The notes beneath the pieces were generated by a model that saw only the letters and a list, made by a program, of their open reading frames with translations, did no database searches and was not told the origin of the DNA. A stretch of DNA of 64,000 nucleotides from Minisyncoccia bacterium (GTDB lineage: Bacteria; Patescibacteriota; Minisyncoccia; Phycocordibacterales; UBA918): positions 18,395 to 82,394 of the forward strand of contig JBGSSW010000011.1 in the NCBI GenBank assembly GCA_041736805.1. Direction: 5' to 3'. Positions 10,301 to 43,279 of this stretch are shown here, piece after piece. The number at the start of each line of letters is the position of its first letter. Positions within the stretch are counted from its first letter, which is position 1. The translations under genes and the position numbers were made by a program.

Positions 10301-13300
10301 ACATGCACTTCGTACTGACCTTCAGTTGAAATCGAGAGATTTCCACTCCAGTCACCTTTGTTATCAGTCTTAACTTTTTCTCGATTAATCTCCGTTAGCT
10401 TTTTCTCAGACCGATAGTAAAAACCTCCGTCAACTTCTTGTCGTTTAAAAGTTTCCCATTCGACCTTGTAAAGGGTTTTTTCAATGTTGCCGATTGATAC
10501 GGGTTTTCCCTCCGTAGTAACAGTCTTCACACGAAGAGTGTTTGGAGAGTTAACACTTGTATAGTATTCATCTGTCTTCACGCCGAGATAAAATTCTCCC
10601 TTATGGACGACGAAAGATTTCTGTAGCGATACAGACCTGCCGTTAACGTCTTTTGCTGTTACTGACACCGTAACAAGCTTACTGCCTTCGCTCTCCACAT
10701 CATCAAAGTAGTCATCGAAATTGAACGTACGCTCAATAGTAGCCCGTCCATTTTCGTCAATCGTCGTCTCTCCTCTAAATAAGAAGTTGTCACCATAACC
10801 ACATGAGTAGCAGGAGTACCAATCACTACCGAAATTAAAGTAATCATCAGTGTATCTGTCGAAGTAATAGTCCTGCGCTGTAACAGCATAAGAAATTGCA
10901 CCCTCATCAAGTGGTACACCGAAATAGTAGTCTGCTTGAACATCAACCTTGAAGGTATCTCCATTTGTGTACTCCTCTTTATTTGTTGTAGCCTCTAGTT
11001 TGAATGCGGCTGGAACATATTCTTCAACATCAAAGTAAAAGCTCTGCCCGAACACTTCGATTCGGTAGGTTCCGAGAGGGGCATCACTCGGTATATCAAG
11101 TTTCGTTGAAAACGTTCCGTAAAGATTCTGTTCCAGATTTGTGTCGTAAATTCGAGCGCCTTGAGAATCAAATACTTCTAGAGATACCTTTTCTCTGTTC
11201 CAGACTTCATACTTTCCATCAAAACCAATGCGATCAATGCCTCGTATATTTACAGTGTGTCCAGGACGATAAATAGGCCTATCAGTATACACGTAGGTCT
11301 TGGAAGCATCTTGCGCAGGACTCGCATTACGTAGTGTGTCAGCCCAGTCAGTAATAACGGCGCTATCAAGTCCTGATTTAATCACTGCCCCACCTAATCC
11401 TTCATGAATCGCAACTCGTGCAATTCCTTGACCGTCAGTGACTCCTGAAGTTTTTTGTCCAAAATTACGATTGTACCCACCTTCAAATTGTGTGACCACT
11501 GCACCTGCAACTGGCAAAAGGGTCTTGTTGTTACTGATCCAATACAGGTTACTGGACGCACCCAACTCTTTCGTAAGGATGTTATCTTTACTTGGATTAC
11601 TGGAAACGCTCCAGGCTTCGTCAGAGTATTCGATCTCTTTTTTGCCTACGGCAAGATTCGTTACGCTTACATATGTTCTGTCAAATAATTGACGATTTTC
11701 ATATGTCTCTTTGTATAAAGGATTACTAAACGTCAATACGTAATGACCACGAGTATCAGAAAAATATTCAGTAAGATTAATTTGGAAGTAGTTATTGACC
11801 CAGTATCGAATCGGTAGTGGTATTTGCTTAGTGATTACTTCAATACATCCATCACTACGTGCGGGAGTATATTGATCATCGCGATCAATAGTTCGTGCAA
11901 GAAATGTCTCAGGGCTCATCTTGCAAATATGCATATCCACATACTCAAGATTCTCAACCGCGTACGTGAACTTAGACTTGTCCGGAGAGGTTACATTATA
12001 TTGCTGTTGCATATTATGGAACCGTGTGTACTGCTCTTTGGGTGGACTGGTTCTAAACGACAATTGATTTGATGCTTGCTGTCCAAAAACATCTACTGGT
12101 TTTACCTCTAAACTATAATTAGTCTCTGGTAGCAAACCATACGACAGCCGAGTTTCAAATTCTCCAGCTTGACATTTGTTATAAGAATTCTGAGATTCAA
12201 CATAGAAAGAATTAGACCAGCGCCCGAATACTATGTAGCCGTCAGTTTGTACATACGAATCTAGCCCGTCATCTTCAGGGTCTCGTAGAGGAGTGTTGGA
12301 ACAGATAGTTATTCCATCAAGATCAGCACTTGTTGATTGATTTTGAGGGAGTGAGCGGAGTATTTGGAATGCCGGATAACTCTTAAGTGCGATATTTATT
12401 GGCTCTGCATTGATACGAAAACCTTCCTTTGTAAGCACTTTCTTCAACTCAAGATTAAATGATTCGTTCACTCCGATCGCGCTTGGTTCAAAAGAAAATA
12501 TCAGTGTTTTTGTATCAGACTCTTTCTCACACGTTGATCCAAGTTGAATAGGTTCACCATTTTCGTCAGTCTTACATCGCTCTCCATAGGAAATATTTTT
12601 AAGCCCCTTAACTCCGATACTTGATTGATCTTTATCTATATCATCAAAAAAAGTTACTGTTACAGTGCCTTGTGGGTCAACTAAATCTGGACGAACGAGT
12701 GACGTACGATCTGACTGAGCAGTAACACTTTCAACGATATTAGCTACTGAAACTACGGTGTTTTTTCCCTCTTCTAAGTTCATTGTTCCGACAAAGGGTG
12801 TGGCGCCAGTCACAGATACTGAATAGGTGGTATCAAAATCCCAGAGTCGACTACGACCGTGAGCATCTTTTTTCTGATACACAAACAACTTACTCTTGTC
12901 TTCGTTTGTAATATATTTACGATCGCTTCTGTCATAGACAGTTACCTCACCGTATTCGACTTCGATTGAAACTTTACTGCCATCAGATTTTGAAACAGTA
13001 ATCTCCTTTTCAGTTTGACTTAAATCCACTGGCTGATTAAAAGCAATAATGATAGGTGAACTGTATCCGATTTGTTCTGTGGAGACATTTTCATAGCGAA
13101 GGGGGCGCGTTACAAAAGTATGGGTTACTGGAGCGACTGGCAGACCATCAAGAGAATAAAAACCACCCTTTACTTCAACTGTATATTTTGATGATGGAAT
13201 GAGAGTAGTTTCAGGTATAAATTGCAAATTTCTGGTACTAATCCATTTAAATTTACCTGGTGTTGGAGGAGATATGGTGATTGGTAGTTCAATTGATTCT

Positions 13301-13917
13301 TGCTCTGTTAGCGTTGTGAGTGGAACCATTGGACGATTGAAGACAATGGTGATTTCGCTATCTTCATGAGCTTCACTGAGTGAAGCTGGAAAAATTGTCT
13401 CAATTTTAGGATCTTCGTCAACGTAAAAATCTCCTGACATCTGGACAGAGCCCGTGTCCATATTGACTGCATAGTAGACTTTCGTACGAAGTGGTTTTTT
13501 TGGCTTAAATGAGACAACTCTTTCGAGATCCTCTGTCTGCCACTCTCCTTCGACTTCAGGACTAAAAGTAATGCTGGCACGCGCAACATCTTCGCTTACA
13601 CCTTCTGGGAGGTTGATTTGAATTGAAGCACTTTTTGATATTTTTTCCGGAACAAAGGAGTAAACATTTGTAAACTGCTTTACTGCCACATGCCTATCCT
13701 GCGTAGCATAAAAGAAAAGTGCTGCCCCAACAAAAATAAGAATTCCTAGAGCTATTAAAAATGGCGCCCTTTTACGTCCTAGCATTTTTAATGCATTTAG
13801 GAATTTCTGTTTAATTGATAGTTTTTCGGAGGTAGGAAGTACTGTCGGCAAAACTTGTTCAGTTGGTTGCGAATCAGGGACAGTGACTTTAGATGTAAAA
13901 TCTTCTTGTGAATCCAT
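7318..13917 (-). CDS. bacterial alpha-2-macroglobulin family protein (2199 aa) with thioester motif and N-terminal TM anchor
   Basis: MVTYPYGCSEQLASSL contains the CxEQ thioester signature. The size and repeated beta-rich (MG-like) domains fit the A2M family. The N-terminus has one TM helix (FLIALGILIFVGAALFFYA) and no lipobox. The gene pairs with a PBP gene. Confidence 0.75.
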   Translation of the reverse strand: MDSQEDFTSKVTVPDSQPTEQVLPTVLPTSEKLSIKQKFLNALKMLGRKRAPFLIALGILIFVGAALFFYATQDRHVAVKQFTNVYSFVPEKISKSASIQINLPEGVSEDVARASITFSPEVEGEWQTEDLERVVSFKPKKPLRTKVYYAVNMDTGSVQMSGDFYVDEDPKIETIFPASLSEAHEDSEITIVFNRPMVPLTTLTEQESIELPITISPPTPGKFKWISTRNLQFIPETTLIPSSKYTVEVKGGFYSLDGLPVAPVTHTFVTRPLRYENVSTEQIGYSSPIIIAFNQPVDLSQTEKEITVSKSDGSKVSIEVEYGEVTVYDRSDRKYITNEDKSKLFVYQKKDAHGRSRLWDFDTTYSVSVTGATPFVGTMNLEEGKNTVVSVANIVESVTAQSDRTSLVRPDLVDPQGTVTVTFFDDIDKDQSSIGVKGLKNISYGERCKTDENGEPIQLGSTCEKESDTKTLIFSFEPSAIGVNESFNLELKKVLTKEGFRINAEPINIALKSYPAFQILRSLPQNQSTSADLDGITICSNTPLRDPEDDGLDSYVQTDGYIVFGRWSNSFYVESQNSYNKCQAGEFETRLSYGLLPETNYSLEVKPVDVFGQQASNQLSFRTSPPKEQYTRFHNMQQQYNVTSPDKSKFTYAVENLEYVDMHICKMSPETFLARTIDRDDQYTPARSDGCIEVITKQIPLPIRYWVNNYFQINLTEYFSDTRGHYVLTFSNPLYKETYENRQLFDRTYVSVTNLAVGKKEIEYSDEAWSVSSNPSKDNILTKELGASSNLYWISNNKTLLPVAGAVVTQFEGGYNRNFGQKTSGVTDGQGIARVAIHEGLGGAVIKSGLDSAVITDWADTLRNASPAQDASKTYVYTDRPIYRPGHTVNIRGIDRIGFDGKYEVWNREKVSLEVFDSQGARIYDTNLEQNLYGTFSTKLDIPSDAPLGTYRIEVFGQSFYFDVEEYVPAAFKLEATTNKEEYTNGDTFKVDVQADYYFGVPLDEGAISYAVTAQDYYFDRYTDDYFNFGSDWYSCYSCGYGDNFLFRGETTIDENGRATIERTFNFDDYFDDVESEGSKLVTVSVTAKDVNGRSVSLQKSFVVHKGEFYLGVKTDEYYTSVNSPNTLRVKTVTTEGKPVSIGNIEKTLYKVEWETFKRQEVDGGFYYRSEKKLTEINREKVKTDNKGDWSGNLSISTEGQYEVHVTGADDKGNKLKTVANVYIYGSGSVTVPPNNNYELDLEVDKTDLDVGDEASVLIKSPYPKAKALISVERGTVYDYWIVDVIGGLYSHKFPIKSEYSPNVYVSVLLLSSDPEVKYGNVYYNIGTQEKELSVEVTANKTHYLPGEEVKLTVKTKNHQGQGVPAEVSVAVADLSVLALKGNPKKNPLVFFYNGFPLSVTTASNIKNILHEVDIPLGTKGGGGAEPDDLAKKKRGVFKDTAFWEASVETNQNGDASVTFTLPDNLTTWQIESLGVTKDTKLGVDYQEFTTKKDLMAVPLKPRFVVPGDVFSLGAKIFNQTADGKEISVTLESKTLAFKGDASESVFINPGESKTVYFDVEAPETMRAGEHVFTFTASDKANTFVDSVEQSIAITPNKTYETVATANATKDDTAVEYLYVPDTVVDGEGGLTINANATMAVFMTDALSYMVTYPYGCSEQLASSLSTIGILTEALTLPNVEGEFDTIEHDGVTYTVENVVTDGLKQVYEAQTLGGGFAYYKGLNANLSLTIHVVSALYDLKMAGYEIREDVLSRGIGYIESETKRLYTQYPDQNNETVILAESVLRKISPETKTSLTDIVITLIKDDSFLNEKISSMSLAYLAILTSKDYSRSDRNRVYDAFQNRIDIDGRGAYLASTEHSNRDFYETPIKNTALAVAVFAAHEDEHETLPNMLRWLLASRDHQGVWGSTHNTFTVVSAMVDYLKWQHETESHFTLRGLLDGVEIFGFEFNPKTVFETFTHFVSIDALPKEKLLPLAFEKEDKNGRENNLYYDMSLKYYLPVDSLPPRDEGITITRDLYALSDERDSESLQTVSVGDVVRGKLTITIPDEYQNVAVEDFIPAGFEIVNFNLSTEDQSLNKQEDVYDEWSAGNSNFTASVFGSVKNIFSDSQVAQVYGSFSSGGVYSKENRKLYPTHVESHDDRVFLYVERLEPGVYEYEYYLRALIPGTFQHLPARAEELYFPEVFGRTSGGIVTVTED

Positions 13918-13995
13918 AATATTGAGTAAATTATAGCATCTTACGCATAATCAAAATGATGATTTAGTCACAACTTAGTAACACGTTCACAACTT

Positions 13996-15528
13996 TTACC
14001 CCACCCGCTCTTTCTTAAACTCCTCCGCATACTTTTGCACGATATTGGCTGTGTCATCCTTCTCTTCAAGGTCAAACCAGAACTTTCCGTCCACGATGTG
14101 GATGCCATACCTGAAATCTTCCTTAGCGTTCGTATGCAGATGTTCTGTAGCCATGTCGGTCAGCTTCACGAGTTCGTGATTGAGAAGCATTACCTCGTCT
14201 TTGTACGATTCAATAAGCTCGTCATACCTTTCAGTAAGATCGGTATCAAATATATCTGACGCCTGCTTCCCGAGCTTCCGGAACTCGCAGAGGGTGTTGT
14301 ATTTCTCGACAGGCTTCGCATTCTTCTCGATGAACAGAGCGAGGTTCGAGAATGACAGAATCATCTCGACCTGTTTTTTGTATTCGTGCACGAACTCCAA
14401 ATCCTCCTTGCATGCATACAAGCTCTCACCCGTGAGCATCTCCACAACTCTCATTTCGCCGAACATGGACATCTCCGCTTCTTGCCGTTTCAGTTCCTTC
14501 GCGCAAAAGAGACTCGCAAAATACTTTCTGGTTTGCTCCATCTCAGCATACCAAATAGCGAACAGCTCCTTGTGGCTTTTTTTAGTGTTGCCGTTCCAAG
14601 TATCGAAGCGGTCACTTGCAAAGAATGGTGCAAAATCTTTGGTGAACAATCCGTTATCGAGCCATGAGTGAAGTGTCTCCCTAACCACATGCTCCATGGT
14701 CACGTCGTTGCCTGTAGCGTATTCCTCTATATTTTCCAGAACTTCGTCATCGTTCCGATCCTTGCACTTGATACGCGCATCGTGAGCAACTTTATACATA
14801 ATCTCCTTGAGCGGAAGCTCGGCGAAGAAGTCACCGATCATAAAGCCGTCCTTCTCCGTGCCACTGCGCATCTTTTTAATACCTTCGTAATACATGCGAG
14901 TGAAGATGGTATCGACGAGGGTGTCTTTGTCCTTCTTGCTAATCTTTCCGCCTTTGAACATTTCATAAAGGAGCGTGTGATCTTCCAGATATTGTTTGTT
15001 GTACCCCACAGAATCATCAAGTAGGACAAGGTCTTCTCGTATTTCCAGAGGTAAGTTGAAGAAAGTGAAGGTGTGGAGGACATGGCGGTACTCGAGGTAC
15101 GTATGAGCGAGAGCAAAGGAGAGACTTTCTTCCTTGGTGATGTTGTCCTGCATTAGACTGTTCACAGGTATGTCTGTCGTCTTCTTTAGATCAGCAAGAC
15201 AGTACGTGAGTATTCGCTCGTTCCTAACCAAGGACAACTCAGCATTGGTTGCAAACATTTGTGCATCAAGACGCATGGACTGTTCCAAGCGGACAATACC
15301 GATGTATCGGTTATATTCATTGATCTTTCCTGTATCTCCAGACCACTTTTGTGTTAGGGTATGAAGCTGCGAATCAGAGAAAATACTTGTACCAGTCTTT
15401 TCTCTATGTCTATCGTTATGCACAAGTGCAGTCACCCGTTCAAGCGGGGTCATGTTTGATCGCAATAAGATGTTGTTGAGGTTTTTCATACTATCTTGTC
15501 TTCTTGAGCATACTCTCAAGAAATTCAA
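13996..15528 (-). CDS. hypothetical protein (510 aa), acidic, no recognisable motif
   Basis: Long ORF in operon with the methyltransferases. The likely start is an internal Met (MKNLNN, ~15489). Confidence 0.5.
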   Translation of the reverse strand: MNFLRVCSRRQDSMKNLNNILLRSNMTPLERVTALVHNDRHREKTGTSIFSDSQLHTLTQKWSGDTGKINEYNRYIGIVRLEQSMRLDAQMFATNAELSLVRNERILTYCLADLKKTTDIPVNSLMQDNITKEESLSFALAHTYLEYRHVLHTFTFFNLPLEIREDLVLLDDSVGYNKQYLEDHTLLYEMFKGGKISKKDKDTLVDTIFTRMYYEGIKKMRSGTEKDGFMIGDFFAELPLKEIMYKVAHDARIKCKDRNDDEVLENIEEYATGNDVTMEHVVRETLHSWLDNGLFTKDFAPFFASDRFDTWNGNTKKSHKELFAIWYAEMEQTRKYFASLFCAKELKRQEAEMSMFGEMRVVEMLTGESLYACKEDLEFVHEYKKQVEMILSFSNLALFIEKNAKPVEKYNTLCEFRKLGKQASDIFDTDLTERYDELIESYKDEVMLLNHELVKLTDMATEHLHTNAKEDFRYGIHIVDGKFWFDLEEKDDTANIVQKYAEEFKKERVG

Positions 15529-15685
15529 CTCGTTCCTTCAGCTCGGTGTTGGCGATGTTCCTTGAAAGGGTTGAAGCGAGCTTAGCAATCATCGATGCCT
15601 GTTTGAACGATATCTCGCGACTCACCACTTTGCGGAGGGTGTCAGAGAGAATGTTGTTTATTTCTTCTAAATTAATTGATTCCAT
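15491..15685 (-). CDS. small hypothetical protein (64 aa), predicted helical
   Basis: ORF packed between two operon genes, overlapping both ends by a few bp. Confidence 0.3.
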   Translation of the reverse strand: MESINLEEINNILSDTLRKVVSREISFKQASMIAKLASTLSRNIANTELKERVEFLESMLKKTR

Positions 15686-15686
15686 A

Positions 15687-16061
15687 TTAGTGATGTTCTA
15701 CGATCTCAAACCACGCTCGTACCTCGTGTGCTCGGCCGCTCTTGATGATGTTCTTGTACAGAGCAAAGATGACGTTTGGCGTGAGTTTGCGTGCCCAGGC
15801 GTTTAGATCTTTGGTTAGACCGTCTTTCTCAAGACGTTTGTTCCAGTCGGTAAGGGTGCCGACATCGACCTCATACTTCTTCGAGAAGTCGAGCTGGGTC
15901 TTGAGCGTGAGCAGTTCAAACACCGTTTCCTCCTCGATACCAAACTTTTCAAGCGCTACTCTCGGCTGTCCTTTGAGAAATGAAGGTAGAGACTTCCAAA
16001 GAGCGTAGGTTGTGTATACCTGGCTTTTATACGTATCTTTGGAAAAATCTTCTTCATTCAT
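15687..16061 (-). CDS. small HTH-like protein (124 aa), resembles phage small-terminase/transposase-type HTH
   Basis: The segment FSKKYEVDVGTLTDWNKRLE has the pattern of an HTH followed by W-x-[KR]-R. It lies inside a mobile-looking operon. Confidence 0.35.
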   Translation of the reverse strand: MNEEDFSKDTYKSQVYTTYALWKSLPSFLKGQPRVALEKFGIEEETVFELLTLKTQLDFSKKYEVDVGTLTDWNKRLEKDGLTKDLNAWARKLTPNVIFALYKNIIKSGRAHEVRAWFEIVEHH

Positions 16062-16065
16062 ATGC

Positions 16066-16815
16066 TTATATCTTCACCGCCTTCGTGCCAGTGAGTTTTT
16101 CAAGTCGCTTGAGTGACGCTTCCACGTATGCCTCATCAAGCTCAATGCCAATGCACTTTCGACTCAAGTGCTCGCACGCGACAGCCGTTGACCCACTTCC
16201 AAGAAAAGGGTCGTAAACAACGTCGCCAACCTTCGTTGAGTTAGGGATAATCTTTCGCAAAAGACCCACAGGCTTCTGTGTTGGATGTAGTTTCGACCGT
16301 GATGGTCGAGGGTGGTAGATAACATTCTTCGCTTTGGCACGTTCCATCTTGTGCTTCCCAAACCAGCCGTAGGCAATGAGTTCGTACAGGGACAGGTAAT
16401 CCTTCCGGCTCATGACGGGCTGGTTCTTGAGCCAGATGATCATTTGGCTGTAGTAGAAGCCAGCAGACTTCATGCCCGAGCGAAGACTCGGGAACATTGA
16501 GTCAGCATTGAAGATATACACTGCGTTGTATTCGGTGAGATATGGGACAACGATTCCAAGATACTTGCGGGTGAATTCCTCGTATTCTACTTCACTCTGT
16601 AGGTGGTCGCCCATGATTGCTTTCGTTTCGTCCGTACCGATTTTTACGAACCCTTTCTTGTTCTCGACATAAGCAACGCCATAAGGCGGATCGCTGACCA
16701 CTGCTCGGATCTTATGTTGACCAATGACCTTGCCGACAAACTCTCTATCAAGCGAATCACCGCAGGCGATGATGTGACCACCGACCTTGAAGATATCTCC
16801 TTTAATTATTTTCAT
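16066..16815 (-). CDS. beta-class DNA methyltransferase (N6-adenine / N4-cytosine type)
   Basis: Motif IV VSDPPYGV precedes motif I DPFLGSGSTAVA, which is the beta-class order. The start is taken at the internal MKIIKGD; the longer ORF would overlap the upstream gene by 107 bp. Confidence 0.8.
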   Translation of the reverse strand: MKIIKGDIFKVGGHIIACGDSLDREFVGKVIGQHKIRAVVSDPPYGVAYVENKKGFVKIGTDETKAIMGDHLQSEVEYEEFTRKYLGIVVPYLTEYNAVYIFNADSMFPSLRSGMKSAGFYYSQMIIWLKNQPVMSRKDYLSLYELIAYGWFGKHKMERAKAKNVIYHPRPSRSKLHPTQKPVGLLRKIIPNSTKVGDVVYDPFLGSGSTAVACEHLSRKCIGIELDEAYVEASLKRLEKLTGTKAVKI

Positions 16816-18046
16816 AGATTCGCTTTGCTTTAAGTCCGGTAAACTTCTCCCATCGATCGATGAGGATGGTTGCGAAGATGAGATCCTGCTCAACTCCTCG
16901 CCACGCACGATTCAGTTCCTCGCACGCAATCAAGTCGCTACCGCTTCCAGCAAATCCGCTGTATACGATATGGAGCGGAGCGCTGCACCTTTTGAACGGC
17001 TTTTCGTTTAGGGTCACTGGCTTCTGGGTAGGATGCTGGTATGACTGGGCGCTGTCTCGCTTCTCAATCCAGATATCGATCATGTCGAATATTTCGTCAT
17101 GCACCTGATTGCCGGTGGTCACTTCCTGATTGAGGATTTCGTTCACGTTATTCATTCCCGTATTGAGATACGGCTTGCCGATCGTGCCGTACACGCATGG
17201 CTCGTACACCTTGTTGAAGGCAATTTTGTGCGTTGGGTTCTGGTTGTTCTTAAGCCAGAGGCAGACACGCTTGGCGTTCACCAGGTGTTTCTGATACAAG
17301 CTCTGCACCATTCCTATGTACGAGGAGTCGCACCAGTAGAAGTAGTGGGCATTCTTTTGGCTTATACCCTTCGCCACCTCTATGCTCTTGTCCAAGAAGT
17401 CTCGGTATTCACTGTCTTTCTTGGAGTCATCTTTGCTCGAATATGATCCCTGATACTTCTCTTTGTTGCCGACGCCTTTGGAGTAGTCCAAGCCGATGTT
17501 GTATGGAGGATCACAGTACACGATGTCCGCCAGGTCTCCGTTCATGAGCTTCTGCACGAGTTCACCATCAGTAGAGTCCCCGACGAGCAGTCGATGTTTG
17601 CCGAGTTCCCAGATTTCTCCAGTTTTAACTTTCGGCGTAATCATATCCTTGAGTGCCTTTTCGAAATTGAAGTCGTCATCGACCACATCAACATCGTCGA
17701 ATAAGCTTTGGAGCTCTTCGTCCCCAAAGCCAACATCGAGGAGCAGGTTCATATCGAACTCCTTGAGGAGCTCCTCGTTCCAAGAGCCGGTGTTTTTATT
17801 GAGACGGAGATTTAATTCTCGTTCCTCTTCGAGTGAAATCTCACGCGAAGGAATCATACACTCGACCTCCTTAATGCCGAGGTCGGCATACACCGTGACT
17901 CGTTGTTCACCGCCAATTATAGTATTGGCTCGTGAACCGATGTTGAGAACTATCGGAACAACTGTCCCAAATTCATGCACCGACTTCTCCAAGTCTCTGC
18001 GCTCGTTTTCGCTTAACTTGCGTGGATTGTATCCGTTCTTGATCAA
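16802..18046 (-). CDS. ParB-like nuclease domain fused to a beta-class DNA methyltransferase
   Basis: The N-terminus GYNPRKLSENERRDLEKSVHEFGTVVPIVLN matches the ParB/Srx domain. It is followed by CDPPYNIG (motif IV) and SGFAGSGSDLIA (motif I). Confidence 0.8.
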   Translation of the reverse strand: MIKNGYNPRKLSENERRDLEKSVHEFGTVVPIVLNIGSRANTIIGGEQRVTVYADLGIKEVECMIPSREISLEEERELNLRLNKNTGSWNEELLKEFDMNLLLDVGFGDEELQSLFDDVDVVDDDFNFEKALKDMITPKVKTGEIWELGKHRLLVGDSTDGELVQKLMNGDLADIVYCDPPYNIGLDYSKGVGNKEKYQGSYSSKDDSKKDSEYRDFLDKSIEVAKGISQKNAHYFYWCDSSYIGMVQSLYQKHLVNAKRVCLWLKNNQNPTHKIAFNKVYEPCVYGTIGKPYLNTGMNNVNEILNQEVTTGNQVHDEIFDMIDIWIEKRDSAQSYQHPTQKPVTLNEKPFKRCSAPLHIVYSGFAGSGSDLIACEELNRAWRGVEQDLIFATILIDRWEKFTGLKAKRIYENN

Positions 18047-19567: not shown

Positions 19568-20452
19568 TTAAAGACTTATATGGGTGTGATTATTTTCAAA
19601 GTTGAAGGTACCTCCACACTGGGCCTTTTTTGCCAAAAGCAGCTGATGGAGTTTTTGTTCCGCAAGCAAATTTTGACCTCTGGCATTAAAGTCTACCGCT
19701 TTCGCACCGGTTCCACTTCCTCTTCCATAGTGCATAGAATTATTACTATGGCTACATGGACCACAAACGGTGTTGCCATTAGTCAAACTACATCTTGGAT
19801 TAGTTAGGTCTATAGTATATAACTGGCTTTTATCGGTTGCGGCATCTATAGCTGAATCACTCAAATAGCAATTTATCATTGTTCTTAGTCTTGGATCTTC
19901 AACTCCCACTGGTGAACCCTTATACTTTGCCATCAAGGCATTATCGTCTGTACAAGCCGCCGTCACATTGGGATCTGGAGGAGTCCCTCCCGCAGAAGGA
20001 AGTTCTAATTTGTCACCACCTTGTGGAGAAATTTGCTTCTGGCACTCAACCTGTGACCATGGACCATAACCAACCACGTTTCCATCAGCAATTCCATCTT
20101 GGTCACCATCTAGTAAACTTCGCATTATAGTATCCACCATCAGCCAGCCAGCCATAACGATTATGAGACCAATTATCGCATTCTGGAAACTACTTTTGGC
20201 GGCCTCAAGAGCAGATTGACTACCAGCAGAAGTAACTAGTCCAAAACCCGCTTTGGCCATCAAAACAGCAAAAAGTATAAATACGATTCCAAACAACCAC
20301 TTAATAATGGCATTTACCATCGATACAAAATCGCACGCACTACAATCTGCCCCGTTACACGGCACAAAGTTCCCAGTCTGTGCTTGCACGATGTCTGCTG
20401 GCAAGGCTGCCAGTAGTAAAATCGGAACGATAAATAAAATTATTTTTCTCAT
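19568..20452 (-). CDS. secreted protein: signal peptide + VirB2/TrbC-like two-TM pilin-like module + C-terminal LAS/M15-like zinc peptidase-like domain
   Basis: Signal peptide MRKIILFIVPILLLAALPADIVQA, then a CxxxxCxxC segment, then two TM helices (AIIKWLFGIVFILFAVLMAKAGFGLVTSAG ... IIGLIIVMAGWLMVDTIM). The C-terminal SMHYGRGSGTGAKAVDF ... NNHTHISL has an H..D...HxH arrangement. Confidence 0.55.
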   Translation of the reverse strand: MRKIILFIVPILLLAALPADIVQAQTGNFVPCNGADCSACDFVSMVNAIIKWLFGIVFILFAVLMAKAGFGLVTSAGSQSALEAAKSSFQNAIIGLIIVMAGWLMVDTIMRSLLDGDQDGIADGNVVGYGPWSQVECQKQISPQGGDKLELPSAGGTPPDPNVTAACTDDNALMAKYKGSPVGVEDPRLRTMINCYLSDSAIDAATDKSQLYTIDLTNPRCSLTNGNTVCGPCSHSNNSMHYGRGSGTGAKAVDFNARGQNLLAEQKLHQLLLAKKAQCGGTFNFENNHTHISL

Positions 20453-20459
20453 ATTTAAA

Positions 20460-21473
20460 TTATATCTTAGTAGCAATGGCTTTAATGTTAGCTACGTAGT
20501 TTCTGGTTTGTTCGTAAGAACTAAATCCGGTATTGGGAGTACAATTTGTTTTTGCCGTTCCATAACAACCTGGACTATTCCAGACACATTGCCAACGTCG
20601 CAAACCAGGACAATCAGCACTAGCCAGATTAGCGCCAGGACCACCATTGTAGGCCGCTAAAGCTAAATCTGAATCCCCTGCATATTTATTTATTAATTGA
20701 TTGAAATACTTGGCGCTAACTGAAAGGTTATAAGCATTATCATTTTGCAATTTATCAGCCACCTGAGCATCAGTAAGACCTTTGAGAGAAGGGTCGAGAG
20801 TTCTAGCTGTACTAACCAGCATCTGTCCACAACCATAAGCTATGCCGGAGTTTGTCGAAGGACCTACTTTATTTGTACAGTTACTAGACTCCTGTGAAAT
20901 TAGACCCTTTAGAAGTTTTACTTGATTTGGATCAGTGATTCCAGCTGCTGCTGCTGCATTTGCAATATCAGTCTGTAAAGCTCCTGAATTAACAATGCTG
21001 TTTACTCGATTATTTATATCGCCAGCTGGCAACACTGTAGAGTTATCACCAGAAGCAGTTGTTCTAGACCACTGCTGAGCAACTGGCTGAGCTACACACG
21101 ATAAAGTGTTCCAGGTACCATTGGTTAATAAAGTCTTAAGGACAGTATCTACCATCAGCCAACCTCCCAGCACTATCACATAACCAATCAATAAACTGGT
21201 AATAGTTTTCTTGGCCGAAGTCATGGCCGAAACATCACCGGCAGAAGTAACCAGTCTAAATCCAGAGATAACAATCAAAATAGCTGCAATGATGCCCATT
21301 ATCAATACTAACCAGCCCGCCAGACTATCAATCAAGCCGACAAAATGACAAGTTTGACACTCCGGCTCCCCTGGTCCACCACAAGGTACTAATCCGGCTG
21401 CCGACACAACATAAGGTAGAGCAAATAAAACCGTACTTAAAAATACTTTCCACATATCACTTAATAGTAGCAT
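20460..21473 (-). CDS. secreted protein: signal peptide + VirB2/TrbC-like two-TM module fused to an SLT-type lytic transglycosylase domain
   Basis: The N-terminus has the same architecture as the neighbouring gene (VPCGGPGEPECQTCHF, two TM helices). The C-terminal LLKGLISQESSN holds the catalytic E-S and AYNGGPG is an SLT family 1 signature. Confidence 0.6.
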   Translation of the reverse strand: MLLLSDMWKVFLSTVLFALPYVVSAAGLVPCGGPGEPECQTCHFVGLIDSLAGWLVLIMGIIAAILIVISGFRLVTSAGDVSAMTSAKKTITSLLIGYVIVLGGWLMVDTVLKTLLTNGTWNTLSCVAQPVAQQWSRTTASGDNSTVLPAGDINNRVNSIVNSGALQTDIANAAAAAGITDPNQVKLLKGLISQESSNCTNKVGPSTNSGIAYGCGQMLVSTARTLDPSLKGLTDAQVADKLQNDNAYNLSVSAKYFNQLINKYAGDSDLALAAYNGGPGANLASADCPGLRRWQCVWNSPGCYGTAKTNCTPNTGFSSYEQTRNYVANIKAIATKI

Positions 21474-21571
21474 GTTTACCTCTTTGAAAATGGAACAAGG
21501 TGTGGTAATTTGTACGCTACGTACTGAAAAATCTTTCGGTGCGAACAAGTAAAATCACCCTAAAATAAATC

Positions 21572-21768: not shown

Positions 21769-21851
21769 GCGTCGGTACTCAAGCGGTCAACGAGGGCAGA
21801 CTGTAAATCTGCTGACTTATGTCTACGAAGGTTCGAATCCCTCCCGGCGCA
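21769..21851 (+). tRNA. tRNA-Tyr (GTA), type II
   Basis: Acceptor GCGTCGG/CCGGCGC with discriminator A. Anticodon stem GCAGA/TCTGC, loop CTGTAAA. T-loop TTCGAAT. CCA not encoded. Confidence 0.85.
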
Positions 21852-21860
21852 CTTTTGCGG

Positions 21861-27041: not shown

Positions 27042-27734
27042 TTAAACTTCCTCTGAAAAAACGGTACCTTCTTTGAGGTCTTTTATTACGCAAGCCGGAA
27101 TAGCCTGCTTTTCACAATCTGATTTTATTAAAAAATTTTTAATTATCTCTCTTTTTCTTTCGCCTACGGCGTATACAATTGCTTCATCAACCAAAGTCCT
27201 AAGGAAAGTTTTGGTCACTGTGATTCTCTCTGTATATTCGTTAATTGTTTTTGGTATTGAGTAGGAAACAACCCACTCACTACCATCAAAATCTACCTCA
27301 AACTCGCCAGCAAAAATACCGGCGGTATGCCCATCATTTCCTATCCCCATAGTGACAACAACAATTCCTTCTTTATTAAAATTTTTCCATTCTTTTAAAG
27401 CAGACTCCCATCTTTTTTTCAATAAGCTTGTAGATTCTCCGTTTGACACTGAAGTAACAATATAATTGACTCCGTTACTTACAGCCAACTTGAAAAAATC
27501 CGTTTGTGATAGTTGTAAAAAATTGTTGACTTTAATATCAGTCGAAAAACGTTCATCTAAAACACTCAAAGTTATATTTGGACCAAGGACGCTACCCGAA
27601 ACAGCCTGCAAAATATCAAATGAGGAGCCTCCGGAAAGCATTAGCAGAACCGGCCGAGTAGTGTTTATTTTTAAGACCTCACTTAGTTTATGACCAGCTG
27701 CCTCAAGTGGTGTTTTAGACCAAACAATTTCCAT
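27042..27734 (-). CDS. pgl: 6-phosphogluconolactonase
   Basis: LMLSGGSS and MGIGNDGHTAGIF motifs of the Pgl/NagB family. Last gene of the zwf-gnd-pgl operon. Confidence 0.7.
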   Translation of the reverse strand: MEIVWSKTPLEAAGHKLSEVLKINTTRPVLLMLSGGSSFDILQAVSGSVLGPNITLSVLDERFSTDIKVNNFLQLSQTDFFKLAVSNGVNYIVTSVSNGESTSLLKKRWESALKEWKNFNKEGIVVVTMGIGNDGHTAGIFAGEFEVDFDGSEWVVSYSIPKTINEYTERITVTKTFLRTLVDEAIVYAVGERKREIIKNFLIKSDCEKQAIPACVIKDLKEGTVFSEEV

Positions 27735-27735
27735 G

Positions 27736-28635
27736 TTATTTTTTACCGATTACTTTATGTCCACCAAATTGATTGCGCATCGCCGCCACTAATTTGCCTA
27801 AGTATGATTCTTTTTCTCTTGTCATTTTTCTTTGTTGTAAAGCAGCTTCAAGAACTTTTACTTCACCAATTGTGGTTATGTGTTCCATTTCTTCTTCAGT
27901 CTCGCCTCGAGGCACCTCACCAGCAATTAAATCAATTTGTCCTTCGCCGTAGGCTTTAGCTAACCAAGAGACCAGCTTGCTAGTAATAATACTTTCGTTT
28001 TCATAAGGCTTTAACACCTCAGCTAAATCAATACCAAATTTTTCTTCATTATCATGCAGAACGGTCATCCCTTCGGCAATTGCACCCATCATGCCATATT
28101 CAATACCATTATGTATCATCTTAACAAAGTGCCCCGCACCTTCATTACCAACTCTAGCATAGCCGTTTTGGGCTGCTAGAGCTTTAAAGACATGCTCATT
28201 ATCATGGAACACACTTAAAAGCCCCCCGACCATAATTGAAGCTCCATGACGAGCCCCCAGCATGCCGCCAGAAGTGCCGCAATCAAGGTAATTTATTTTT
28301 AGAGCTTTTAATTGCTCGTGCCTTCGAATTGAATCTTTGTAAAAACTATTTCCTCCATCAATAACCGTATCTCCAGGACTAAGTAGTGGTAACAATTCTT
28401 CCAAGATACTATCTACAGCATTGCTAGACACCATCAGCCAAATTAGTTTAGGTGAAGACAAAGACTCAACCATTTTAACCAGAGATGAAGTCCCCTCAAT
28501 CCCAATCTCCGATGCCTCTTTCAAGACTTCTTCGCTACGATTGTAACCAACGACACGATAACCTTTCTCAACTAAATTGGTAGCCATATTCAAACCCATT
28601 CGACCCAAACCAACAAACCCGATTTCTTTTTTCAT
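27736..28635 (-). CDS. gnd: 6-phosphogluconate dehydrogenase, short (~300 aa) form
   Basis: N-terminal Rossmann motif GFVGLGRMGLNMATNL and 6PGD-like body. Sits between zwf and pgl. Confidence 0.7.
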   Translation of the reverse strand: MKKEIGFVGLGRMGLNMATNLVEKGYRVVGYNRSEEVLKEASEIGIEGTSSLVKMVESLSSPKLIWLMVSSNAVDSILEELLPLLSPGDTVIDGGNSFYKDSIRRHEQLKALKINYLDCGTSGGMLGARHGASIMVGGLLSVFHDNEHVFKALAAQNGYARVGNEGAGHFVKMIHNGIEYGMMGAIAEGMTVLHDNEEKFGIDLAEVLKPYENESIITSKLVSWLAKAYGEGQIDLIAGEVPRGETEEEMEHITTIGEVKVLEAALQQRKMTREKESYLGKLVAAMRNQFGGHKVIGKK

Positions 28636-28645
28636 GTTAAATAAA

Positions 28646-30067
28646 TTATTTTTCTTCTTTAATAACAGGTCTTTCTGCTCCCTTTTCGTATTTATATAAA
28701 GGCAAGGCTGAAAATGACTCTAATATAGGTGTAATAAAGCTCCAAGCTGCTTCTACTTCCTTACCACTAACGAATCTAGTCTGGTCCCCAATGATACAAT
28801 CATACAAAACTCTTTCGTAAGCTTCTGGTGAACGAAATACCTCAGTCTCATGTTTGGTCAAAACTAATTTTCTCTCTTGAAGTTTAAATTCAAAACTAGG
28901 CTCCTTAACCCACATTGTTAATGAAATGCTTTGTTCTGGAGAAATTGTAATTGTTAAAACATTACGATGACTATGTACTTCGCTCTCAGCTACACAAACA
29001 CAATTATCAATTGGTTTAAAGGTAATTACCGCTTCAGTTAAGGATTGATTTAAGGCTTTACCGGACTCTAATGTCACTTGGACATTTTTCCAAAGCTCAC
29101 TATCAATATGTGTTTCTAATTTAAAATAAGTTTCTGTTTTGCTTTCGGAAGCGACTCCAGACGTTTCTAAATAGCCATCGTATTGAGCTCTTAATCGTAA
29201 ATCAGTGTCGTGAATGGACAAAGATTTCAAAGCTGACAAGCGACTAGCCCGAACTGAGTCTGCTGAATTAATATCAACTGGTTTCATGGTCAGAAGAGAC
29301 AGCATTTGCAACATATGGTTTTGACCAACGTCGCGCAGTGCCCCAATCCCGTCATAAAATGAACCGCGAGTTGAAACATCTTGTTTTTCAAATAATCGTA
29401 GTTTAATTGACTCAATTCTTTCACCGTTCCATGAGTCAGAAATAATACTATTTGCAAATCTTAACGAAATTATATTTTCAATGGCATCTTTGGCTAAATA
29501 ATGATCAATTCGATAGATTTGTTCTTCGGTAAATAACTCACAAAGTTGCTTTTCTAGACTTTGAGCTGTTACTAAATCGCTACCAAAAGGCTTTTCTACC
29601 AACAGCCGAGACCAAGAGCCTAATCCGTCGCAAAGTGACATAGCTTGGCTCTTTTTTAGATTCTCAAATATTTCAGCGTAGAGATTTGGTGGTACAGCTA
29701 AATAAAATAATTTACTTGTGCATTGTCCAACCTCTGTGTCAAAAAGATTTAATTCATCTTTTATCCTTTCGTAGGCTGCTTCATCTGCAAAGCTACCGGA
29801 AGCAAAGCGAACGTGCGAGCAAAAATTAGCCAATTCTTCTTCCTTATATTCACTTACCTTGGTCTTGATACTTTGTCTAGCAAATTGTTGATACTGTTCA
29901 TTTGATAGTTCTTTTCTGGAAAGACCAATAATTGTAAATCGGGTTGGTAATAGTTTGGTCTGGTACAGATTGAAAAGAGCTGGTAATAATTTAGTTTCGG
30001 CCAAATTTCCAGTACCACCAAAAATAACAATTGCTGTTGGGTAGTTTAAGTCATCTTTTTTTGCCAT
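28646..30067 (-). CDS. zwf: glucose-6-phosphate 1-dehydrogenase
   Basis: IFGGTGNLA NADP-binding motif. EKPFG (VEKPFGSD) and RIDHYLAKD (G6PD active-site motif). Start taken at MAKKDDL. Confidence 0.8.
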   Translation of the reverse strand: MAKKDDLNYPTAIVIFGGTGNLAETKLLPALFNLYQTKLLPTRFTIIGLSRKELSNEQYQQFARQSIKTKVSEYKEEELANFCSHVRFASGSFADEAAYERIKDELNLFDTEVGQCTSKLFYLAVPPNLYAEIFENLKKSQAMSLCDGLGSWSRLLVEKPFGSDLVTAQSLEKQLCELFTEEQIYRIDHYLAKDAIENIISLRFANSIISDSWNGERIESIKLRLFEKQDVSTRGSFYDGIGALRDVGQNHMLQMLSLLTMKPVDINSADSVRASRLSALKSLSIHDTDLRLRAQYDGYLETSGVASESKTETYFKLETHIDSELWKNVQVTLESGKALNQSLTEAVITFKPIDNCVCVAESEVHSHRNVLTITISPEQSISLTMWVKEPSFEFKLQERKLVLTKHETEVFRSPEAYERVLYDCIIGDQTRFVSGKEVEAAWSFITPILESFSALPLYKYEKGAERPVIKEEK

Positions 30068-30162
30068 CAAACTATAATACACTTTGAAACCTAGTTCGGA
30101 CACCCCTTTATTTTTCAAGTAAAAGTAAAAGCCCACCGCTTACGCGATGGGCTTTTACTAGT

Positions 30163-41684: not shown

Positions 41685-42020
41685 TTAAGGAGAAAACTTA
41701 AAAACTTGATCACAACCTGTGGCAGTGGGGTCCAAAGCACAATCGGTCTGCTTATCTAAGCCAAAAGTGCCGGTTGCAATAGCTAAAATAGTGTAAGCCG
41801 AGAGCATTACCACCAAGCCGATGATGCCATACATCATATGCTTTTTACCCTCTTCTCGGGCGGAGTCGTTATCAGCGTTTAAAATATAGACAGCACAACC
41901 CCAAATAAAGAATAAAAAAGCAATCCCTGATAGTAGGGCTATCAAAGGGTAAAGGATGATGTCGTTTACCTTTGAAACAAACTTTCCGGCTTCTTCAGCG
42001 GCCTGTTGTTGCGGTGTCAT
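41685..42020 (-). CDS. small VirB2/TrbC-like (T4SS-pilin-like) two-TM protein, paralogue 1 of 4
   Basis: Two TM helices separated by a charged loop (NADNDSAREEGKKHMMYGIIGLVV). Shares the pattern hydrophobic-helix, [DN]-x-[DE]..EEGK, hydrophobic-helix with the three neighbouring genes. Confidence 0.5.
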   Translation of the reverse strand: MTPQQQAAEEAGKFVSKVNDIILYPLIALLSGIAFLFFIWGCAVYILNADNDSAREEGKKHMMYGIIGLVVMLSAYTILAIATGTFGLDKQTDCALDPTATGCDQVFKFSP

Positions 42021-42070
42021 AATGCTTAAATTATAGCAAATTGTTAATAAAGAAGTATCACTAATACACA

Positions 42071-42095
42071 AAAAAGCCCCTGACGGGGCTTTTTT
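42071..42095. terminator. bidirectional rho-independent terminator
   Basis: AAAAAGCCCC-TGAC-GGGGCTTTTTT. Confidence 0.65.
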
Positions 42096-42120
42096 GTGCA
42101 TTAGTGCATTAGCTAGAAAA

Positions 42121-42519
42121 CTATGGAGCCGGAGTCAGAGTCGGAGTGGTTGGAATAGTTACCTGTGTAGACTTTCCAGAAAGACCAATTGTATCGACCA
42201 AGAAGGTTACGATTCCCCAGAAAACAAAGATAAGGACGAAACCAAGAGTTGCGTAAATCATCAAACTCTTTCCTTTTTCCTTTGAATCATCATTAGCGCC
42301 GCCAAGAATAAAGTATTGGAACATTCCCCAAACAAATACTAGGAAACCAATTCCGATAATGAAAGGAATAAGGACTTTGTTAGTAAACTCAAGAATATTC
42401 GCTAGTAGAGTACCAAAAGGTCCTCCTGAACCAGTAGTAACCAATCCTTGTGCAGCCACCATAGCTACTGGAAGTAGGAATAGTGAAGCTGAACCGATAA
42501 ATAATTTTAAACTTCGCAT
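42121..42519 (-). CDS. small VirB2/TrbC-like pilin-like protein with signal peptide, paralogue 2
   Basis: Signal peptide MRSLKLFIGSASLFLLPVAMVAAQG, then two TM helices around GGANDDSKEKGKS. Confidence 0.5.
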   Translation of the reverse strand: MRSLKLFIGSASLFLLPVAMVAAQGLVTTGSGGPFGTLLANILEFTNKVLIPFIIGIGFLVFVWGMFQYFILGGANDDSKEKGKSLMIYATLGFVLIFVFWGIVTFLVDTIGLSGKSTQVTIPTTPTLTPAP

Positions 42520-42627
42520 ACAAACTATATATTTATACATTAAATAATAACACTACCCACTATTATACAGGTAATATCACCAATAATCAAGTTTTTTTGA
42601 CGACCTGTGTATAAGTAAGCTACTGGT

Positions 42628-42921
42628 CTAAATGCCAAAAAGTGAACTCCGGATCATTCGTACTATGCCCCAAGTGACAACCATAACGACAAAGACAACA
42701 ACAGCCACGAGAGCAAACTGCTTACCTTCTTCACGCTTTCTTTCATCGCCAGCATTAATAATCCAAGCATCAATTATTTTCCAAACTAAAAAAACAAAAA
42801 CGACAGCAAAAATTGCTGGGATAATTAAATTGATTAAACTTAGAAATAAATCTACTATCTTTCTAAAGGTGGTTGGTGGCATAATGACAGATAATTTAAG
42901 GAGTGGTAGTAAATGAACCAA
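42628..42921 (-). CDS. small VirB2/TrbC-like two-TM protein, paralogue 3 (start uncertain)
   Basis: Two TM helices around INAGDERKREEGKQ. Confidence 0.45.
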   Translation of the reverse strand: MVHLLPLLKLSVIMPPTTFRKIVDLFLSLINLIIPAIFAVVFVFLVWKIIDAWIINAGDERKREEGKQFALVAVVVFVVMVVTWGIVRMIRSSLFGI

Positions 42922-43279
42922 CTAGATTTTTAACAATCTCGGCAATAGCAACCGCACCGATAATAAGTACACCACCAATAATGGCATAGGTAAGGGCTCT
43001 GGTGGCTTGCTCCACTTGAGCGGCATTGCCTCTGGCTGTAACATAAAGAAAACCAGCGTAGATAATAAAGAAGACTACAATCGGCGCAGCGAGGACAATT
43101 AAAATATTTAGAATGGCTACTAGCAAGTCCTCTAGAGAATTTATTTTAAGAGGATTAACGATAGAAACATTTTGTGTAACCCCTAACCCTTGAGCCGCGA
43201 CAGTAGTAGCCGAAACTAAAAAAATTACTGTGACCAAAGGTAAAACTTTACTTGAAAATTTTTTGATTTTACTAAACAT
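42896..43279 (-). CDS. small VirB2/TrbC-like pilin-like protein with signal peptide, paralogue 4
   Basis: Signal peptide ...LVSATTVAAQG, then two TM helices. Confidence 0.5.
   Translation of the reverse strand: MFSKIKKFSSKVLPLVTVIFLVSATTVAAQGLGVTQNVSIVNPLKINSLEDLLVAILNILIVLAAPIVVFFIIYAGFLYVTARGNAAQVEQATRALTYAIIGGVLIIGAVAIAEIVKNLVGSFTTTP

Follow-up and report, generated by a model that had tools for sequence, protein, structure and literature searches.

Why should a cell couple a pilin-like membrane module to an enzyme that cuts peptidoglycan? This question is raised by two neighboring genes in a 64,000-nucleotide stretch of a Minisyncoccia bacterium contig, which we refer to as the window. 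geneA (20460..21473, minus strand) encodes a protein of 337 residues, in which a pilin module (PF18895) precedes an SLT lytic transglycosylase domain (PF01464); geneB (19568..20452, minus strand) encodes 294 residues, in which the same type of module (PF18895) precedes a domain of the Hedgehog/DD-peptidase (LAS) fold. The open reading frame of geneA extends over 20460-21548, and we took the ATG at 21473 as its start, which is preceded at a distance of 7 nt by an AGAGG ribosome-binding site and agrees with the start positions in an alignment of homologs. The ATG of geneB, at 20452, lies 7 nt past the TAA stop of geneA, and a co-transcribed pair is the best explanation. A previous sequence-only reading had described two paralogous proteins of the secreted type. 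Both open reading frames are indeed present on the minus strand at these positions, and their N-terminal modules are 39% identical over 113 residues and thus paralogous.

In both proteins, the module consists of a leader, a cysteine motif and a VirB2-like two-helix hairpin. In geneA, the hydrophobic N-terminus and the conserved junction between AA and GLVPC in homologs indicate a Sec-type signal peptide of about residues 1-26 (21396..21473, minus strand), with predicted cleavage between ...VSAA and GLVPC. It is followed at residues 27-117 (21123..21395, minus strand) by the motif C31-x7-C39-x2-C42 and the hairpin, which is delineated by PF18895, NF045849 and two hydrophobic segments (about 41-81 and 90-117, Kyte-Doolittle). 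In geneB, signal peptide, C32-x4-C37-x2-C40 motif and hairpin span residues 1-115 (20108..20452, minus strand), as seen from PF18895, the identity to the geneA module, hydrophobic segments at about 39-77 and 88-114 (Kyte-Doolittle) and AF2 model helices at 38-73 and 79-113. The leader is probably cleaved after ...VSAA in geneA, before G, and after ...VQA in geneB, before Q, as placed by the conserved A-x-A junction rather than by a dedicated predictor. According to the homolog alignment, the short loop between the two hydrophobic segments holds a near-invariant lysine. After the hairpin, geneB continues with a conserved GPW..V.C segment and a low-complexity linker (residues 116-165; 19958..20107, minus strand), which we delimited by conservation and by AF2 confidence, with pLDDT values that stay under 50 for the larger part of 117-148 (117-121, 127-130 and 132-148). 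W132 and C137 in this segment are invariant in 36 homologs, and C137, like C126 in geneA, represents a fourth conserved cysteine after the second helix. Each mature protein has ten cysteines: nine of those in geneB are invariant, and for the tenth, 36/36 homologs have a cysteine despite an alignment offset; of those in geneA, five are invariant across 28 homologs. Besides the cysteines, the homolog alignment reveals G69, G95, W52, W103, D107 and the GPW..C segment as invariant features of the module.

The assignment to the pilins relies on Pfam family PF18895 (T4SS_pilin), which matches geneA with 30.9 bits (E 2.9e-7, residues 45-110) and geneB with 27.3 bits (E 3.8e-6, residues 46-109), scores that barely exceed the gathering score of 26.6 bits. 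Residues 45-113 of geneA also weakly match NF045849, a pilin-like family of Mollicutes ICEs, and PF04956 (TrbC/VirB2, gathering score 27.9 bits) matches neither protein at E<=1. Among 107 diverse long relatives carrying the module, PF18895 is matched in 106, with a best E of 2.9e-13, and TrbC in seven (E<1e-3). Most of what the sequence-only reading had proposed for this region, i.e. a signal peptide, two closely spaced helices and a VirB2-like pilin module, thus stands; the CxxxxCxxC stretch that it assigned to both proteins is present in geneB, but geneA has C-x7-C-x2-C instead.

The window also contains free-standing pilins of the same family. Four small genes without the cysteine motif form a tandem array at 41685..43279 on the minus strand (41685-42101, 42121-42540, 42628-42921 and 42896-43279), where pilin-like genes had likewise been suspected. 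PF18895 recognizes the three open reading frames of at least 100 residues (40.8, 35.5 and 32.1 bits), and the fourth, 42628-42921, is recognizable by its BLAST similarity to the other array pilins. The product of 42896-43279 additionally reaches 26.6 bits with TrbC (gathering score 27.9). With the modules of geneA and geneB, the array pilins share 27-29% identity.

The enzymatic domain of geneA is easily identified. PF01464 (SLT) matches residues 184-282 (20628..20924, minus strand) with 36.9 bits (E 3e-9; gathering score 21.3), and the conserved region continues to the C-terminus. The catalytic residues E195-S196, Q217 and Y275-N276-G277-G278 are invariant in 28 homologs, in full agreement with the SLT domain proposed earlier. 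With the family 1 lytic transglycosylases (Slt70-type, PF01464), geneA thus shares the E-S, G-x-x-Q and AYNGG motifs; it differs in that its SLT domain sits behind a pilin hairpin and is followed by a Cys-rich C-terminal extension (CP...W.C.W.SPGC...C..N.G). The central part of this extension is missing in 4 of the 28 aligned homologs, and the terminal motif N.G…Y..TR.YV is invariant in all of them.

The C-terminal domain of geneB (residues 166-294; 19571..19957, minus strand) is recognizable by its fold. Its model has a pLDDT of 96.5, and the best 37 Foldseek matches are all Hedgehog N-domains (probability 0.92-1.00, E 5e-3 to 0.2), which have the same fold as the LAS enzymes of MEROPS family M15, such as VanY, VanXY, the Streptomyces albus DD-peptidase and phage L-Ala-D-Glu peptidases. 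H235, H241, D254, E286, H289 and H291 are invariant in 36 homologs and equivalent to H135, H141, D148, E177, H181 and H183 of Shh, with identical H-x5-H spacing. The H-x12-D…H-T-H arrangement noticed previously therefore corresponds to H241-x12-D254 and H289-T-H291. The usual spacing between histidine and aspartate is x6 or x3; here it is x12 and not x6, because geneB has a six-residue Gly-rich insertion (HYGRGSGxGAxAVD) relative to Hedgehog and M15 proteins. The domain is further set apart from these families by six cysteines that are invariant and by a helical sub-domain at its N-terminus.

At the sequence level, the domain is more isolated. It has no Pfam match, the Peptidase_M15_2/3/4, VanY and HH_signal models included, and a weak match to Peptidase_M15_3 (E 0.027) appears in just 2 of 31 geneB homologs. 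PDB sequence searches, both with the single sequence and with a profile, returned nothing relevant. In a set of 5.8 billion proteins, a search with the domain profile yielded five matches, two of them already among our geneB homologs and all apparently from the same family, and no annotated M15 family; it therefore offers no sequence bridge to the latter. In hhalign comparisons, the domain matched the M15_3-type domains of other pilin fusions with an E of 1.2e-4 and a probability of 55%. Against a single Shh sequence, the overall match was not significant (E 0.095), with the motifs in register: HSNNSMHY......AVD of Shh aligns with HSEESLHYEGRAVD of geneB. We conclude that fold and residue conservation support the classification as a LAS-type zinc peptidase with predicted zinc binding. 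The earlier suggestion to this effect is thereby backed by the fold, not by an HMM, together with the complete and invariant residue set of Hedgehog proteins and DD-peptidases. geneB represents a Hedgehog-like subfamily of bacterial LAS domains, for which Pfam has no model.

To what extent is this architecture peculiar to the window? A profile search with the module returned 46,718 cluster representatives, with top matches mostly of about 300 residues. The architecture of geneA is common to >120 homolog clusters at 38-68% identity, and geneB has about 45 full-length homolog clusters. In the 107 diverse long module proteins, the recognized partner domains are peptidoglycan hydrolases without exception: SLT_3, SLT, M15_2/3/4, VanY, NlpC/P60, CHAP, Amidase_5, Transglycosylas and Extensin-like_C. 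Judged by their predicted domains, this shows that a large subset of PF18895 'pilins' are chimeras with peptidoglycan hydrolases of many classes. The nearest named homologs come from Candidatus Nomurabacteria and Paceibacterota, which agrees with the previously assumed CPR origin. Some members carry the JGI label 'Type IV secretion system pilin/Transglycosylase SLT domain', and in the literature accessible without subscription we found no paper that describes pilin-hydrolase fusions. The fusion, which had been called unusual, is so by the standards of the canonical type IV secretion system (T4SS), but it is widespread within the Patescibacteria.

The pair also occupies a conserved position. 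In the eight related loci that we compared (L002, L004, L006 and L008-L012), it is found in the same slot of the core chromosome, ClpB ... pair ... MiaA-ParB-RelA-TopA-DprA, with IF2 also among the core genes, and the slot is kept in relatives down to about 40% identity. Such a place among housekeeping genes is just as compatible with a general role in the cell wall. An SLT fusion together with a geneB-type protein is found at L002 and L006, and an M15_4 fusion together with an SLT_3-like protein at L010 (21.6 bits, below the SLT_3 cutoff of 27 bits). The partner enzyme at the orthologous position differs between geneB-type, M15_3, M15_4 and unclassified domains. For the second genes of L009, L011 and L012, Pfam yields PF18895 alone; H-x6-D ... 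[E/D]-H-[F/W] motifs are visible by eye and suggest, as a lead, that these may be other LAS variants. Neither a T4SS ATPase (VirB4-type) nor VirB6 or a channel family was detected among the 42 open reading frames scanned in the window, and precomputed Pfam families show no VirB4 or VirB6 within 10 kb at the eight related loci. The neighborhood therefore lends no support to the link to pilus or T4SS assembly that the sequence-only reading had drawn.

Taken together, we consider it an evenly poised proposal that geneA and geneB are membrane-tethered wall hydrolases that open the sacculus for a VirB2-type pilus or T4SS. Both would be extracytoplasmic peptidoglycan hydrolases, held at the cytoplasmic membrane by the N-terminal VirB2-like hairpin. 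Sec export and leader cleavage would leave a short, Cys-bearing N-terminus outside the cell; the first helix would run inward, the Lys loop would lie in the cytoplasm, and the second helix would lead back out and display the disulfide-rich catalytic domain outside the cell on its flexible linker. Judging from the intact catalytic residues, geneA would act as a family-1 lytic transglycosylase that cuts glycan strands, and geneB, with its Hedgehog/DD-peptidase (LAS) fold, as a zinc peptidase that cuts peptide stems or cross-links. Jointly, glycan cutter and peptide cutter could make a hole all the way through the sacculus, and a pairing of glycosidase and peptidase recurs at L002, L006 and L010. 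Since their anchor and the structural pilins of Patescibacterial T4SSs are members of one family, the most likely task would be a VirB1-type job, i.e. the local opening of the wall where VirB2-like pilins insert and assemble, with the pilin module as a targeting or co-assembly device.

A serious rival, possible though on the unlikely side, is that the two proteins are instead housekeeping autolysins, which remodel the cell's own sacculus in growth and division and for which the PF18895-type hairpin is a mere lineage anchor, with no tie to a pilus or T4SS. The core-gene slot, which does not vary among eight relatives with identities as low as about 40%, would suit such enzymes, as would the lack of a detectable VirB4 (in the window and within 10 kb at the eight loci) and the size of the module family, which is as large as one would expect of a general-purpose anchor. 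Furthermore, the genome makes peptidoglycan, as indicated by a class A PBP at 5217-7331 and by FtsA and FtsZ at 53899-56458. An autolysin, however, could do with a single-pass or lipoprotein anchor, whereas the hairpin found here belongs to a two-helix family that marks T4SS clusters (PMC12102498, PMC10633639). Likewise, the conservation of the module, with its invariant cysteines, glycines, tryptophans, aspartate and GPW..C segment, exceeds what a plain anchor needs, and the same genome also encodes free pilins of this family. Far less credible, and in our view almost certainly wrong, is a lysis cassette of a phage or mobile element, in which the hairpin, attached to endolysins of an adjacent island, would function like a holin or as a signal-anchor-release element. 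Such an island does exist: two DNA methylases (16066-18046), of which one is a fusion with a ParB_N domain, are encoded downstream of geneB, a serine recombinase is found at 3705-5057, and the G+C content is elevated between 14 and 18 kb. In geneA, moreover, the SLT region matches PHROG endolysin families. Against this, a PHROG search with geneB gave no lysis-family match, and both proteins have Sec leaders with predicted cleavage and belong to PF18895. Above all, the methylase/recombinase island is missing from the eight relatives that carry the pair in the same slot, and this synteny effectively refutes a prophage or lysis cassette.

The remaining alternatives take the pilin module more literally. 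The chimeras could be true minor pilins that co-polymerize with the free PF18895 pilins, the resulting pilus carrying lytic transglycosylase and LAS-peptidase domains on its surface or tip and drilling through the cell's own or a host's peptidoglycan; we regard this as unlikely, and note that, if true, it would also explain the apparent lack of VirB1 in Patescibacterial T4SSs. In a version directed at the host, which we find quite improbable, chimeras built in as minor subunits alongside the free pilins would present enzymes at the surface or tip of the pilus to breach host peptidoglycan. In solved conjugative pili, such as the F-pilus structure of Costa and colleagues from 2016, the termini of the pilin are reportedly found on the outside of the filament, with the loop between the helices facing the lumen; an enzyme fused to the C-terminus would accordingly face outward. 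An extracellular location is suggested by the disulfide-rich domains, and the turnover of the partner enzyme at the orthologous position would fit varied host walls. Furthermore, T4SS and pilins are essential for the epibiotic growth of Saccharibacteria (PMC10633639). If each subunit carried a globular domain of some 130-220 residues, however, a VirB2-type filament would become crowded, so that chimeras could be incorporated only sparsely. Moreover, the pilin-SLT gene is conserved and not fast-evolving, as its identity and number of clusters indicate.

A role of the pair in opening the wall for a pilus or T4SS would have a bearing on Patescibacterial secretion systems at large. Patescibacteria rely on an unusual T4SS that is essential and equipped with VirB2-like pilins (PMC10633639). 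According to the main genomic survey, most VirB2-bearing Patescibacteria have no recognizable VirB1, and pilus biogenesis seems independent of a VirB1-type hydrolase (PMC12102498). This survey labels all PF18895 matches as VirB2 (PMC12102498), yet a large subset of them are hydrolase chimeras; the wall hydrolase that is seemingly missing from Patescibacterial T4SSs may therefore be built into proteins of the pilin family. This bears on the question of how ultrasmall epibionts pass an appendage through a wall, be it their own or that of a host.

The closest known relatives of the module are the PF18895 pilins of Patescibacteria, as in the pilin arrays of Ca. Southlakia epibionticum and Nanosynbacter lyticus TM7x, with which geneA and geneB share the Sec leader, the two helices and the short basic loop. 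PF18895 proteins are presumably pilins, and in the literature we found no report of an observed PF18895 pilus. In S. epibionticum, they lie in an essential T4SS cluster (PMC10633639). By contrast, geneA and geneB lie outside a T4SS gene cluster, have a Cys motif ahead of the first helix and a conserved GPW..C segment behind the second, and include a catalytic domain of some 130-220 residues. Of 1948 assemblies, only 1135 have a pilin gene in the vicinity of virB4 (PMC12102498), so that proximity to virB4 is not strictly defining for PF18895 pilins.

On the functional side, the pair resembles VirB1 and the hydrolases of monoderm T4SSs. In TraG of pIP501 and in PrgK, the enzymatic domains sit behind an N-terminal membrane anchor. 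Such proteins join SLT with peptidase domains (PMC12102498), and TraG (SLT+CHAP) and PrgK of pCF10 (LytM+SLT+CHAP), like our pair, thus represent a membrane-anchored combination of transglycosylase and peptidase for breaching the wall, which in our pair is predicted. geneA and geneB, however, split the two activities over two genes, the peptidase of geneB has a LAS/Hedgehog fold and not a CHAP or LytM domain, and their anchor is a pilin-family hairpin and not a single transmembrane segment. Finally, the pair is not located beside virB4 or other T4SS genes, which weakens the notion that it is a VirB1, but not the notion that it works like one.

The two genes lie on the minus strand. GeneA (20460-21473; 337 aa) encodes a pilin module followed by an SLT domain, and geneB (19568-20452; 294 aa) the same kind of module followed by a LAS-type domain. 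The longest geneA ORF extends to a TTG at 21548; an AGAGG ribosome-binding site precedes the ATG at 21473 by 7 nt, and this ATG agrees with the start positions of homologues. Since geneB starts 7 nt past the geneA TAA stop, the two genes almost certainly share a transcript, and their translation may be coupled; simple consensus scans returned no convincing promoter or terminator candidate between them. A divergent tRNA-Tyr gene (21769-21852) lies upstream of the pair.

Each protein opens with a hydrophobic leader ending at a small-residue junction, followed by a cysteine triad (C-x7-C-x2-C in geneA, C-x4-C-x2-C in geneB), two strongly hydrophobic helices separated by a ~15-residue loop in which a Lys is conserved, and finally a conserved segment, G-P-W-x-x-[VI]-x-C. 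With 30.9 (geneA) and 27.3 bits (geneB), both exceed the Pfam gathering score of 26.6 for PF18895 (T4SS_pilin), and geneA has a weak, below-cutoff match (E 6e-5) to the NCBIfam model of a 'pilin-like conjugal transfer protein' from Mollicutes ICEs. The two modules share 39% identity across 113 residues, and 27-29% with the free-standing small pilins at 41685-43279. In an AlphaFold2 model, geneB residues 38-73 and 79-113 form a helical hairpin. From the predicted signal-peptide cleavage and the Lys loop we infer an N-out, loop-in, C-out topology, which would place the catalytic domains outside the membrane, consistent with their many conserved cysteines. The free-standing array itself comprises four tandem PF18895 genes on the minus strand (138, 139, 97 and 127 aa; 20-33% mutual identity) that lack the Cys motif; beside it lie genes for a solute-binding protein and for two unclassified membrane proteins (39392-40789 and 40786-41586), and no T4SS ATPase adjoins it.

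GeneA residues 184-282 match PF01464 (SLT, 36.9 bits), and PHROG endolysin and lytic tail-protein families match the same region. Across 28 homologues (39-69% identity) no variation occurs at the catalytic E195-S196, Q217 and Y275-N276-G277-G278, and the enzyme is predicted to be an intact family-1 lytic transglycosylase. C-terminal to it, residues 283-337 (20460-20627) form a Cys-rich extension, CP-x6-W-x-C-x-W-x-SPGC...C..N.G...Y..TR.YV, without family assignment; its end motif (N.G...Y..TR.YV) is invariant in the 28 homologues, and the central Cys-rich part is absent from four of them.

The C-terminal 139 residues of geneB match nothing in Pfam, NCBIfam, PHROG or PDB sequences. We nevertheless predict that they adopt the Hedgehog/DD-peptidase (LAS) fold, with none of its catalytic and zinc-binding residues missing, on the following evidence. 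H235, H241, D254, E286, H289 and H291 are invariant in 36 full-length homologues (43-64% identity), as are a number of cysteines. For the domain alone, AlphaFold2 gives a very confident model (pLDDT 96.5, pTM 0.87), and its top 37 Foldseek matches in the PDB are Hedgehog N-terminal signalling domains (probability 0.92-1.00, E 5e-3 to 0.2, TM about 0.45), with an M15 endolysin among the lower-ranked ones. Alignment with hhalign to eight M15_3-type domains of other pilin fusions (E 1.2e-4, probability 55%) brings S-x-H...D and H-x-H into register. Finally, a local alignment with Shh, not significant in its overall score, places CSHSNNSMHYGRGSGTGAKAVDF on GHHSEESLHYE------GRAVDI. In contrast to the known fold, geneB carries a six-residue Gly-rich insertion that brings the His-Asp spacing to x12; the sequence-only reading had read its H-x12-D...H-T-H motif correctly. 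Its observation of two pilin-hydrolase fusion genes is likewise confirmed, and its interpretation of the domains supported, by the ORFs, PF18895 in both proteins, SLT in geneA and the LAS fold in geneB.

This architecture recurs elsewhere. PF18895 and SLT co-occur in at least 120 clusters of geneA homologues (all those listed), and named homologues belong to Candidatus Nomurabacteria and Paceibacterota. Beyond its own family, the geneB module recruits ~300-aa proteins whose C-termini are Peptidase_M15_3, M15_4, VanY, M15_2 or HH_signal. A module profile searched against 1.84 billion cluster representatives matched 46,718 proteins at E<=1e-3 (6,315 at E<=1e-10); among the best 150 of these 46,718, 89 of 124 newly returned single-module proteins exceed 250 aa. 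In a Pfam scan of 107 long module members, 106 contained PF18895, and the partners were SLT_3 (10), SLT (7), M15_3 (6), M15_4 (4), NlpC/P60 (4), M15_2 (3), Extensin-like_C (3), VanY (2), Amidase_5, Transglycosylas and CHAP (1 each). These 43 matches, which may overlap, give a recognised partner to at most ~40% of the 107. All the enzymatic partners that were recognised are peptidoglycan hydrolases. Besides these, the scan matched only TrbC (7; a pilin model), Flg_new_2 (1) and DUF7220 (1); the remaining C-termini are unclassified, as in geneB. The homologue counts and partner scan indicate that the fusion is a widespread Patescibacterial design and no one-off. The profile search also returned at least 14 'poly-pilin' proteins with 5-17 tandem hairpin modules in one polypeptide, among them P0241 (552 aa, six consecutive two-helix units) and P0264 (1775 aa, 17 modules).

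Eight related loci share a single slot for the pair (IF-2/RbfA - aminotransferase - ClpB - variable - [pilin-SLT][pilin-X] - MiaA - ParB - RelA/SpoT - TopA - DprA), some homologues being only ~40% identical. As first and second gene, in that order, L002 and L006 carry pilin-SLT and a geneB-type gene, and L004 the geneB-type gene only; L008 has a small pilin and a pilin-M15_3/HH_signal gene (faint matches), and L010 a weak pilin-SLT_3-like gene and pilin-M15_4. L009, L011 and L012 combine pilin-SLT with a second gene (11028-11954, 11210-12145 and 11061-12134, respectively) whose Pfam-unclassified C-terminal domain differs from that of geneB; at this orthologous position one partner domain has apparently been exchanged for another. 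The domain has an H-x6-D motif and, at its end, [E/D/P]-H-[F/W], which may be signs of another divergent LAS subfamily.

The window keeps the upstream synteny (aminotransferase 32983-34209, ClpB 30163-32871). Between ClpB and the pair lie oxidative pentose-phosphate genes (27042-30136; G6PD, 6PGD-like, 6-phosphogluconolactonase), which are absent from this interval in the related loci examined. Downstream of geneB, methylases, alpha-2-macroglobulin, a class A PBP and a serine recombinase replace the MiaA-ParB block. The interrupting segment (3705-18046) is a probable inserted island, with a serine recombinase (3705-5057), a pair of DNA methylases at 16066-18046, one a ParB_N fusion, and unclassified ORFs; G+C is 0.46-0.49 at 14-18 kb vs ~0.40 elsewhere, and L010 has a serine recombinase in the same slot (6248-7954). 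The 2199-aa bacterial alpha-2-macroglobulin (7318-13917, minus) is convergent with the class A penicillin-binding protein (5217-7331, plus), an unexpected combination for a small CPR genome; the arrangement resembles the A2M-PBP1C pairing that occurs in other bacteria.

Functionally, the best-supported reading is that two enzymes tethered by pilin hairpins, one cutting glycan and the other peptide, would jointly open peptidoglycan. Because the anchor belongs to the pilin family, this points to a VirB1-like role for a VirB2-type pilus or T4SS. A general autolysin role is a serious rival, given the conserved setting among housekeeping genes and the lack of T4SS genes nearby: no VirB4-type ATPase was seen within 10 kb in the eight related loci, or among the 42 window ORFs scanned. 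That the enzymes are displayed on a pilus and attack the wall of a host is possible but unsupported, and synteny rules out a phage lysis cassette.

The architecture is already recorded in databases, JGI naming some geneA homologues 'Type IV secretion system pilin/Transglycosylase SLT domain'; we found no published description of it in the searchable literature. Patescibacterial T4SSs resemble those of monoderm conjugation, but with arrays of VirB2-like pilins; in S. epibionticum these arrays are essential (PMC10633639; PMC12857230). A genomic survey that called VirB2 by PF18895, entering matches simply as VirB2 in its tables, does not mention the fusion; it found VirB1 missing from most VirB2-bearing genomes and suggested that other glycosidases might substitute (PMC12102498). 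A VirB1-like role of the pilin-hydrolase fusions may resolve this apparent absence of VirB1 from Patescibacterial T4SSs.
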